Part shown: positions 12,626-13,245 of the stretch, piece after piece
Position numbering within the stretch: the first letter of the stretch is position 1
How the letters are laid out: every line of letters starts with the position of its first letter
IMG/VR virus record: IMGVR_UViG_2551306525_000004
Coordinates: 1-14,165 of that record
DNA length: 14,165 bases
Direction: 5' to 3' (one strand)
Origin: a virus
Taxonomy: Duplodnaviria; Heunggongvirae; Uroviricota; Caudoviricetes
Program-made: the position numbers and the translations under genes
The notes under the pieces: model-generated
Databases searched by the model: none
What the model saw: the letters and a program-made list of their open reading frames with translations, nothing else
Told to the model about the DNA's origin: nothing

Positions 12626-12935
12626 TCTCCCGCATATTGCCAGCATGGCTTTTAATGAGCCGCTGATGCTTGAACCCGCCTATGCGCGGGTTTTCTTTTG
12701 TGCGCTTGCAGGCCAGCTTGGGATCAGCCGCCTGACGGATGCAGTATCCGGCGACAGCCTGACTGCCGGAGAGGCACCCGCGGCGCTGGCGTTATCCGGT
12801 GATGATGACGGACCACGACAGGCCCGCAGTTATCAGGTCATGAACGGCATCGCCGTGCTGCCGGTGTCCGGTACGCTGGTCAGCCGGACGCGGGCGCTGC
12901 AGCCGTATTCGGGAATATCTTCAGTCCCATACTGA
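12606..12935 (+). pseudogene. C: Truncated gene C (head protease/scaffold); only about 103 N-terminal codons of lambda-like sequence, then out-of-context sequence to a stop
   Basis: GTG 12606, product [41 protein letters not shown]...RALQPYSG matches the lambda gpC N-terminus (full length about 439 aa). Homology stops near 12916 and the frame ends at 12935. Confidence 0.8.
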
Positions 12936-12936
12936 T

Positions 12937-13071
12937 ATGCCCGGCAACGATGACCTGAAGGGCATTAACGTGAAATACCGTTATGAGTTTACGGACACGC
13001 TGGGGATGGTGACGTCATTCAGCTATGCAGAAGACAAGAATCGCCAGCTGACTCATTACAGCGATAGCCGT
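12937..13071 (+). pseudogene. lom: Internal fragment of a lom-like (Ail/Lom/PagC family) outer-membrane protein gene
   Basis: Translation PGNDDLKGINVKYRYEFTDTLGMVTSFSYAEDKNRQLTHYSD matches an internal segment of lambda Lom (VPGSDDLNGINVKYRYEFTDTLGLVTSFSYAGDKNRQLTRYSD) as I recall it. No signal peptide and no C-terminus. Confidence 0.6.
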
Positions 13072-13245
13072 TCTGACGGTACTCATCCCCGCGCCAATCT
13101 GGCGGGCAATGGTTTCAATCGATGGCCAGCACACACCTTCGTCATTACTGAAATCAGCCAGGCGGGCCATAATTGCCACGCTGGATAATTTCATGCCTGA
13201 CGCTGCGCAACCATCCCATACATAGCCGGTTAATTTAGTGCTCAT
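13015..13245 (-). pseudogene. Truncated HTH (HTH_36-like) replication/regulatory gene N-terminus, e14 ymfN-like
   Basis: First ~58 codons (MSTKLTGYVWDGCAASGMKLSSVAIMARLADFSNDEGVCWPSIETIARQIGAGMSTVR) look like the HTH N-terminus of phage replication-initiation proteins. The remaining 18 codons are antisense of the lom fragment, so the gene is cut at about 13071/13072. Confidence 0.5.

Follow-up and report, generated by a model that had tools for sequence, protein, structure and literature searches.

The 14,165-nucleotide stretch of DNA analysed here (the window) is very probably a whole contig from a lambdoid prophage in decay, in an E. coli lineage resembling APEC O78, inserted at the tRNA-Arg (argU) site between intD and ompT (the DLP12 site), and the compound scar near its right end would be the product of two illegitimate recombination events, an inversion within the prophage that came first and a deletion ending at lom nucleotide 103 that came later. 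The scar belongs to ordinary prophage decay, which is already a well-known process, and has no function: C', lom' and O' are mere pieces of genes, and the open reading frames of 76, 83 and 109 amino acids that cross the joints are chimeric by-products. Exact look-up of the 83-aa chimeric frame (12937-13185/13188) matched no record.

The window is 100% identical to a part of HE964769.1, which belongs to the scaffolded draft assembly GCA_000308975.2 and was reached through exact matches of the truncated products O' (76 aa) and C' (109 aa). In HE964769.1 a run of 100 N lies directly past window position 14165 (L013 11561-11660), and the window is therefore one complete draft contig, which has repeats at both of its ends. 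The next genes after the 100 N are uidB-uidA-uidR. A third junction, between the region upstream of ymfL and uidC, was considered and rejected because the 100 N between them are a scaffold gap; the proximity of uidB-uidA-uidR is a scaffolding artefact that is readily mistaken for a prophage-chromosome junction. Window positions 12500-14165 were read directly, and the parental sequences compared were phage lambda, the GF50 prophage, the prophage of APEC E19057 and an intact lom (L003). A look-up of the 339-aa protein matched ten other genomes, the source not being among them, and a literature search on the accession and on lom deletion hotspots returned nothing relevant.

Structure of the scar

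The features of the right part of the window are the following.

12606-12916, plus strand: C', the first 311 nt of a lambda-type head protease/scaffold gene C (S49 peptidase), 96.5% identical to lambda C nt 1-311
12916: junction 1, a deletion joint, with a single T common to C nt 311 and lom nt 103
12916-13066, plus strand: internal lom fragment, nt 103-253 (codons 35-84) of a 600-nt Ail/Lom gene, identical to L003 at 151/151 nt
13061-13066: junction 2, the putative inversion crossover, GCGATA, common to lom nt 248-253 and the reverse complement of O nt 180-185
13061-13245, minus strand: O', the first 185 nt (61 codons) of an O-like/primosomal replication gene, Pfam HTH_36 (E=5e-9)
13235-13593, minus strand: small early gene or genes between O and ymfL, with two overlapping gene calls in different frames
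13590-14159, minus strand: ymfL, a CII-like regulator (Phage_CP76) of 189 aa, Pfam PF06892 (E=1.3e-13), 100% identical to the RefSeq 'protein YmfL'

The homology to lambda C, which an earlier note on this DNA had seen stop at about 12916, ends exactly there. The intact GF50 prophage is 99.6% identical to window positions 1-12916 and has the remainder of C after that, while the C' frame of the window enters lom in another reading frame and meets a stop at 12933-12935, which gives a product of 109 aa found exactly in the source genome and in the Logan contig L014. In a three-way comparison the C parent reads ...CGTATTCGGGAA-T-GACC, the lom parent (L003) reads ...GCGGCGGG-T-ATCTTCAG and the window reads ...CGTATTCGGGAA-T-ATCTTCAG, so the whole overlap is one T. 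An in-register microhomology of CGGG with GGGG was tried for this joint and rejected, as the joints carry 1-8 extra left-arm bases and overlap by only 0-2 nt. The DNA missing at junction 1, measured on GF50, amounts to 14,463 bp and comprises the rest of C, the genes D, E and FI, all tail genes, J, and lom nt 1-102. Junction 1 is also present in L014, an independent contig from 7 samples, which corresponds to window positions 9917-12993 and ends within lom at 12993.

The 20 nucleotides at 12917-12936, which had been described as unassigned filler, are codons 35-41 of lom and have no mismatch to the CE0026f/N61 allele. They seemed unassigned because lambda lom is strongly diverged in this loop-coding stretch; lambda lom aligns with the window at 12955-13011 only (57 nt, 82%). 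The translated sliver matches Pfam Ail_Lom (PF06316, E=1.9e-23) at profile positions 35-84 of 199, so a lom fragment in the same orientation as C was correctly recognised from the letters alone, and its extent is 12916-13066 and not 12937-13071. The same allele, which is rare in E. coli, occurs in E. coli CE0026f/N61 with zero mismatches over 12916-13066. BLAST aligns window positions 12916-13070 with lom nt 103-257 of CE0026f/N61/EC130 (155 nt, 99.4%), and its sole mismatch lies at 13067 because the bases from 13067 on are O sequence. Codons 1-34, which include the signal peptide, and codons 85-199 are absent and the flanks are C and antisense O, so the sliver is not part of an intact gene, a possibility that had been named as one that could undo the reading of the scar.

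Alignment of the window with the intact lom (L003) and with the reverse complement of the intact O (E19057) places the second switch, which had been put at about 13072, at 13061-13067 with the GCGATA overlap. This overlap is perfect over 6 bp and matches at 9/10 positions if it is stretched to 13070. In the ancestral prophage both genes lie on the same strand, and the lom GCGATA and the O TATCGC form a 6-bp inverted repeat. The two junctions are about 150 bp apart, in agreement with the proposed distance of about 155 bp, and the proposed check of breakpoints and microhomology by BLAST yields the single T at junction 1 and the 6-bp GCGATA at junction 2.

From 13061 to its end the window is 100% identical to many E. 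coli prophages and to the ECOR29 phages, where the genes are annotated as 'DNA replication protein O' or helix-turn-helix protein, DUF4222 and ymfL, all of them on the window minus strand. The antisense 5' end of a helix-turn-helix replication-type gene was thus rightly identified: the HTH_36 region is followed by DUF4222/'ymfM' and by YmfL (Phage_CP76), with 100% identity to RefSeq ymfL regions, and an inverted e14/YmfL-type early region as the right arm, with the lom sliver as a marker, is supported. The frame from 13245 to 13015 (76 aa) reads from O' through into antisense lom, and its exact product is found on 4 contigs. Between O and ymfL one gene call is a 59-aa DUF4222 frame (13414 to 13235, PF13973); it is the choice of RefSeq, which gives this name to the identical sequence, and of some callers. 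The alternative is a 112-aa 'YmfM'-type frame (13593 to 13255), which some phage records name YmfM and for which Pfam gives no match. Beyond the start codon of ymfL the contig has only 6 nt more.

Junction 2 is present at 100% identity to the window in three other assemblies, one from NCBI and two metagenomes from ENA (L010, L011 and L012), which correspond to the window from 12916 to 14014, 13585 and 13543, respectively. Neither junction is found in any of 5,426 complete RefSeq E. coli genomes. Both recur, however, in assemblies independent of the source (L014 for junction 1 and L010-L012 for junction 2), so they are not products of chance or of an assembler, and the misassembly that the earlier note had allowed for is unlikely.

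Both arms in one prophage and the reciprocal junction

In APEC E19057 a single lambdoid prophage, located between tRNA-Arg/intD and ompT, has both arms of the window in normal collinear order. Its early arm (ymfL-DUF4222-O) is 100% identical to window positions 13061-14165, and its late arm (DUF968-Q-lysis-iss-Nu1-A-W-B'), 99.9% identical to window positions 1-11656, lies about 4.3 kb downstream in the same orientation. Both arms are likewise within one prophage in MS20649, and the GF50 prophage is complete, with C through J, lom and stf. Of the undeleted state that the earlier note had proposed to look for, GF50 has the intact version and E19057 has the arms in collinear order. On these sequence comparisons the two arms would not come from different elements and a recombination between two prophages, which had been suggested for the fusion with an early region of another lambdoid element, is unnecessary.

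From such a prophage, the order late arm, lom', inverted O' is most simply reached by an inversion that has one end in O and the other in lom. An inversion of this kind predicts a reciprocal junction, in which the reverse complement of lom from nt 254 on is followed by TATCGC and by O from nt 186 on, with the sequence CATGCCAGCGGGTATCGCACGGCTGG. The open reading frame predicted there, MPAGIARLEAEGW..., starts with MPAG, from antisense lom, and passes into IARLEAEGW... to the end of O, with a total of 257 aa. In a collection of 15 billion proteins the exact 257-aa protein (P0121; AGC85996.1, CCK45712.1) is present on 58 contigs, one of which has 4,798,435 bp. The predicted 80-nt junction has no mismatch in 12/12 loci fetched (L028-L031 and L033-L040, with four places represented twice), which include CP004009.1 (APEC O78) and HE962388.1, and the hexamer there is TATCGC. 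The order in these loci is ompT, resolvase/invertase, the reverse complement of the tail fibre gene (stf), the reverse complement of 'lom joined to 'O, and then PerC, Dam, LexA-like, RusA, KilA-N, DUF968, Q and, further on, the lysis genes; they overlap window positions 1-6470 at 99.8-99.9%.

The assembly GCA_965259485.1 has both junctions, lom'/O' (L010) and 'lom/'O (L035), on separate draft contigs. The exact reciprocal junction and the co-occurrence of both junctions in one assembly argue for a reciprocal inversion within the prophage, which would make junction 2 one end of that inversion and not a deletion. The view of the scar as the result of successive deletions stands in so far as it is a compound scar made by successive rearrangements, and fails for junction 2, whose predicted reciprocal end exists exactly. 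From the distances in GF50 and E19057 the inverted segment originally had about 32 kb. The source genome is not among the matches listed for the reciprocal junction, for which 24/80 index blocks were covered, and the full C'/lom'/O' combination is found in the source contig only. The observation of the earlier note was real but mis-measured; its interpretation correctly saw a multi-step scar but erred on the filler, on a second prophage and on what kind of event made junction 2.

Sister lineages and the order of events

The first step would have been a reciprocal inversion of about 32 kb by a crossover between TATCGC (O nt 180-185) and GCGATA (lom nt 248-253). The stretch reversed by it would include lom up to nt 253, J, the tail and head genes, the lysis genes, Q and the 3' part of O, and its products would be O' (nt 1-185) joined to lom' (nt 253 backwards) and 'O (nt 180 onwards) joined to 'lom (nt 254 onwards). 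In the second step, which would belong to the window lineage alone, a deletion of 14.5 kb with a 1-nt overlap, from C nt 311 to lom nt 103, would have eliminated the head and tail genes still present, with only lom nt 103-253 kept between C' and O'. The mechanism of both would probably be RecA-independent illegitimate recombination (end joining or template switching), which uses short or no homology.

The order of the steps comes from L010-L012, whose right arm of 628-1099 nt is 100% identical to the window and has the same junction 2, and in which lom is kept back to nt 57. Since they retain lom nt 57-253 at junction 2, the inversion took place before the deletion from C to lom nt 103. Leftward of lom nt 57 come 134 bp of J, a portion of H and the initial ~300 nt of A, with the joints A'/'H, H'/J' (134 bp of J) and J'/'lom nt 57; this type is seen in one assembly and in two metagenome assemblies. 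In APEC O78 the inverted late arm reaches only to window position 8925 (A nt ~27), where it meets yfdP (L032 ~21782; NC_020163.1 ~1273781). The deletion there removed A...C'/lom'/O'-ymfL-cro-cI and thus junction 2, and complete genomes have the reciprocal junction alone because this later deletion in APEC O78 erased the other one.

The iss gene, which encodes the increased serum survival lipoprotein (Lambda_Bor family), is located at 6325-6618 on the minus strand, between the lysis genes and Nu1. It is kept in every examined decay variant that spans the region: the source contig, APEC O78, MS20649, E19057 and GF50.

Recurrent lom ends, alternative explanations and related systems

The C-terminal 158 aa of Lom, used as a query, retrieved many fusion proteins of other sequences with Lom, and their breakpoints are clustered. 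The end at lom nt 103, beginning with TATCTTCAG, has four different left partners with overlaps of 0-2 nt.

C' (window position 12916): overlap of 1 nt
A' (terminase; MS20649, prophage not inverted): overlap of 2 nt
FI' (EC130): overlap of 0 nt
methyltransferase' (Logan contig L025): overlap of 2 nt, a DNA methyltransferase'-lom fusion with a different lom allele

Over all the recurrent positions, those at nt 211 and nt 57 described below included, the breakpoints lie at window positions 12916 and 13061-13066, at L001 4006, L002 4001, L025 3166 and L010 ~1145, and also in L041-L043. EC130 (L002 1-2357) has, besides its FI'/'lom nt 103 joint, an Nu1' (87 nt)/'C joint next to ISCro1 of the IS66 family, and in L025 GmrSD_N and HEPN-domain genes (556-2408), which are candidate defence genes, are directly upstream of the methyltransferase'-lom fusion.

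A second exact hotspot, beginning with TATGCAGG at nt 211, has three partners, sequences of A, U and the Z region, according to a DNA-level check of one cluster. The joint of L010 is at TACGCC (nt 57), which makes four occurrences at nt 103, three at nt 211 and one at nt 57, and the hexamer of junction 2 includes the TA of TAC-252. All DNA-verified lom ends are at TAY starts, of which there are 10 among 231 positions, in a sample drawn from Lom-containing proteins and with a pattern noticed post hoc. The partner sites are mostly 5' of TAY as well, and the window sliver has both ends on such positions. The recurrence at nt 103 corresponds to three other independent deletions, and the repeated use of identical nucleotides on the lom side is far more frequent than expected from simple microhomology. 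This regularity could stem from a preference for TA at the breakage or joining step, from IS insertion followed by IEE-type excision, or in part from ascertainment.

Several features that might mark these positions were compared. No IS, IS end or target-site duplication was seen in the window, L001, L002, L025 or L010-L012. A cosN-like cleavage at nt 103 was rejected by inspection, as the upstream GCGGCGGG resembles the lambda GGGCGGCG only backwards, and a likeness of TATCTTCAGT to an invertase pseudo-site or to the lambda Int core site was unconvincing by inspection. The only Chi-like sequence near the hotspots, GCTGGTGA, is 14 nt from nt 211 and not at the expected distance. The pattern HTATCTTCAGTCCCATACTGATATGCC had no match in genome_contigs and metagenome_contigs, and its one match in viral_contigs is an intact lom with a SNP. 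Among Lom variants, P0001-P0003, P0019, P0021, P0031, P0066 and P0101 have internal tandem duplications, such as repeated SVMAGPSVRVNEWFS, or in-frame deletions, and the internal in-frame deletions end at the same FSYAGD position, which suggests a slippage-prone sequence within lom.

Discrete fragile positions in lom, 5' of TAT or TAC (nt 57, 103, 163, 211 and ~252), may have served repeatedly, in separate events in lambdoid prophages, as the end that is kept in large one-sided deletions, and in one case in an inversion, a proposal that is rather improbable on present evidence. Junction 1 would then be the footprint of a site-preferring process at nt 103, either an IS with IEE-type excision or a break 5' of TA. 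Such a process, which we consider about as doubtful, would fit the recurrence of the nt-103 end with four partners at minimal overlap, the nt-211 hotspot, the restriction of verified ends to TAY and the IEE-linked adjacent deletions on record (PMC9943667). Against it, no IS or IS remnant is at the site in any sequence and scans of three collections gave no further junction; moreover, most partner sites share TA(Y), so that ordinary microhomology joining over 2-3 nt could produce the same ends, and the ascertainment through Lom-containing proteins and the post hoc nature of the pattern weigh here too.

Two other explanations concern the way in which the arms came together, and both are far less probable than a site-preferring process. 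One is a fusion, by deletions or by recombination of two prophages, in which the late region of a lambda-like prophage became attached to the early region, in inverted orientation, of another, e14-like element. The genomes of this clade have several related lambdoid prophages (3-17 matching places per genome), the source contig ends in repeats and the early module is of the YmfL/e14 type, all of which would suit a fusion, but E19057 and MS20649 have both arms in one prophage, that same argU-ompT prophage contains the exact reciprocal junction, immediately followed by sequence that overlaps the left end of the window, both junctions are in one assembly, and a fusion of the deletion type leaves no reciprocal product; this reading is very improbable. 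Hardly more credit is due to an assembly chimera, in which a C'/'lom (nt 103-600) locus was misjoined to a lom (up to nt 253)/O' locus through their common 151-bp lom repeat. The source is a draft scaffolded with 100 N, lom is multi-copy in these genomes and the sole independent contig with junction 1 ends within lom, so a misjoin of this kind is conceivable, but each junction is separately real, the head genes expected beside lom'/O' after the inversion are seen contiguously in L010-type contigs (A'...J'/'lom'/O'), and a chimera requires that the genome also have a second Nu1-A-W-B-C' copy, attached to a lom with a complete 3' end, of which there is no evidence. The least probable source of the inversion is the prophage's own Pin/Hin-type DNA invertase acting at pseudo-sites. 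A resolvase/invertase gene is indeed located in the same prophage about 4 kb beyond lom, past a 3.6-kb tail-fibre gene, but only the 6 bp GCGATA are common at the crossover, with unrelated flanks, and one partner is in a replication gene, with about 30 kb between it and the tail-fibre region. The crossover is also unlike hix/gix sites, which are 26-bp dyad-symmetric sequences with a central 2-bp crossover.

The reading of an illegitimate inversion followed by a deletion has parallels in several known systems. Like the K-12 cryptic prophages DLP12, Rac, Qin and e14, the window prophage has lost structural genes by nested deletions that left fragments, and it shares with DLP12 the chromosomal site (argU-intD...ompT) and the repertoire of Q, lysis, Nu1/nohD-like and iss/bor genes. 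Unlike them, its lineage adds the reciprocal inversion of about 32 kb, and intact-looking relatives such as GF50 are extant, so that the steps can be ordered. The overlaps of 6 bp at junction 2 and 1 bp at junction 1, with no mobile-element ends, resemble short-homology illegitimate recombination and RecA-independent end joining in E. coli, as does the position of junction 2 at a short inverted repeat with both reciprocal products, whereas the recurrence of the lom-side ends at the same nucleotides is unlike it. The invertases Pin (e14), Gin, Cin and Hin, which switch tail fibres, are comparable in that the inversion occurred in a prophage encoding a resolvase-family invertase near tail-fibre genes; they differ in that the crossover is not at invertase sites and the segment spans replication to tail genes and breaks two genes, so the inversion of the window is a one-off rearrangement and no switch. 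IEE-dependent IS excision is reported to bring with it adjacent deletions of up to >40 kb (PMC9943667), and the deletions associated with IEE lie beside elements of the IS3, IS1 and IS30 families (PMC9943667; Kusumoto et al. 2011, as cited there). The lom deletions are similar in having one fixed end, another that varies up to tens of kb away, small overlaps and an IS that would be gone afterwards, and dissimilar in that no IS is seen at lom nt 103 or nt 211.

The scar itself matters little, and its worth is as an example of an ordered decay history. The breakpoints, the reciprocal product and the sister lineages together give such a history for a prophage that has iss and occurs in strains of the APEC O78 type, with the inversion first and at least three independent deletions later. 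The nucleotide-exact recurrence of lom breakpoints, which is the only aspect possibly worth more work, hints at non-random breakage or joining in prophage erosion and, if the fragile positions were real, would point to a specific nuclease, transposase or end-joining activity with a preference for TA as a force in prophage domestication.
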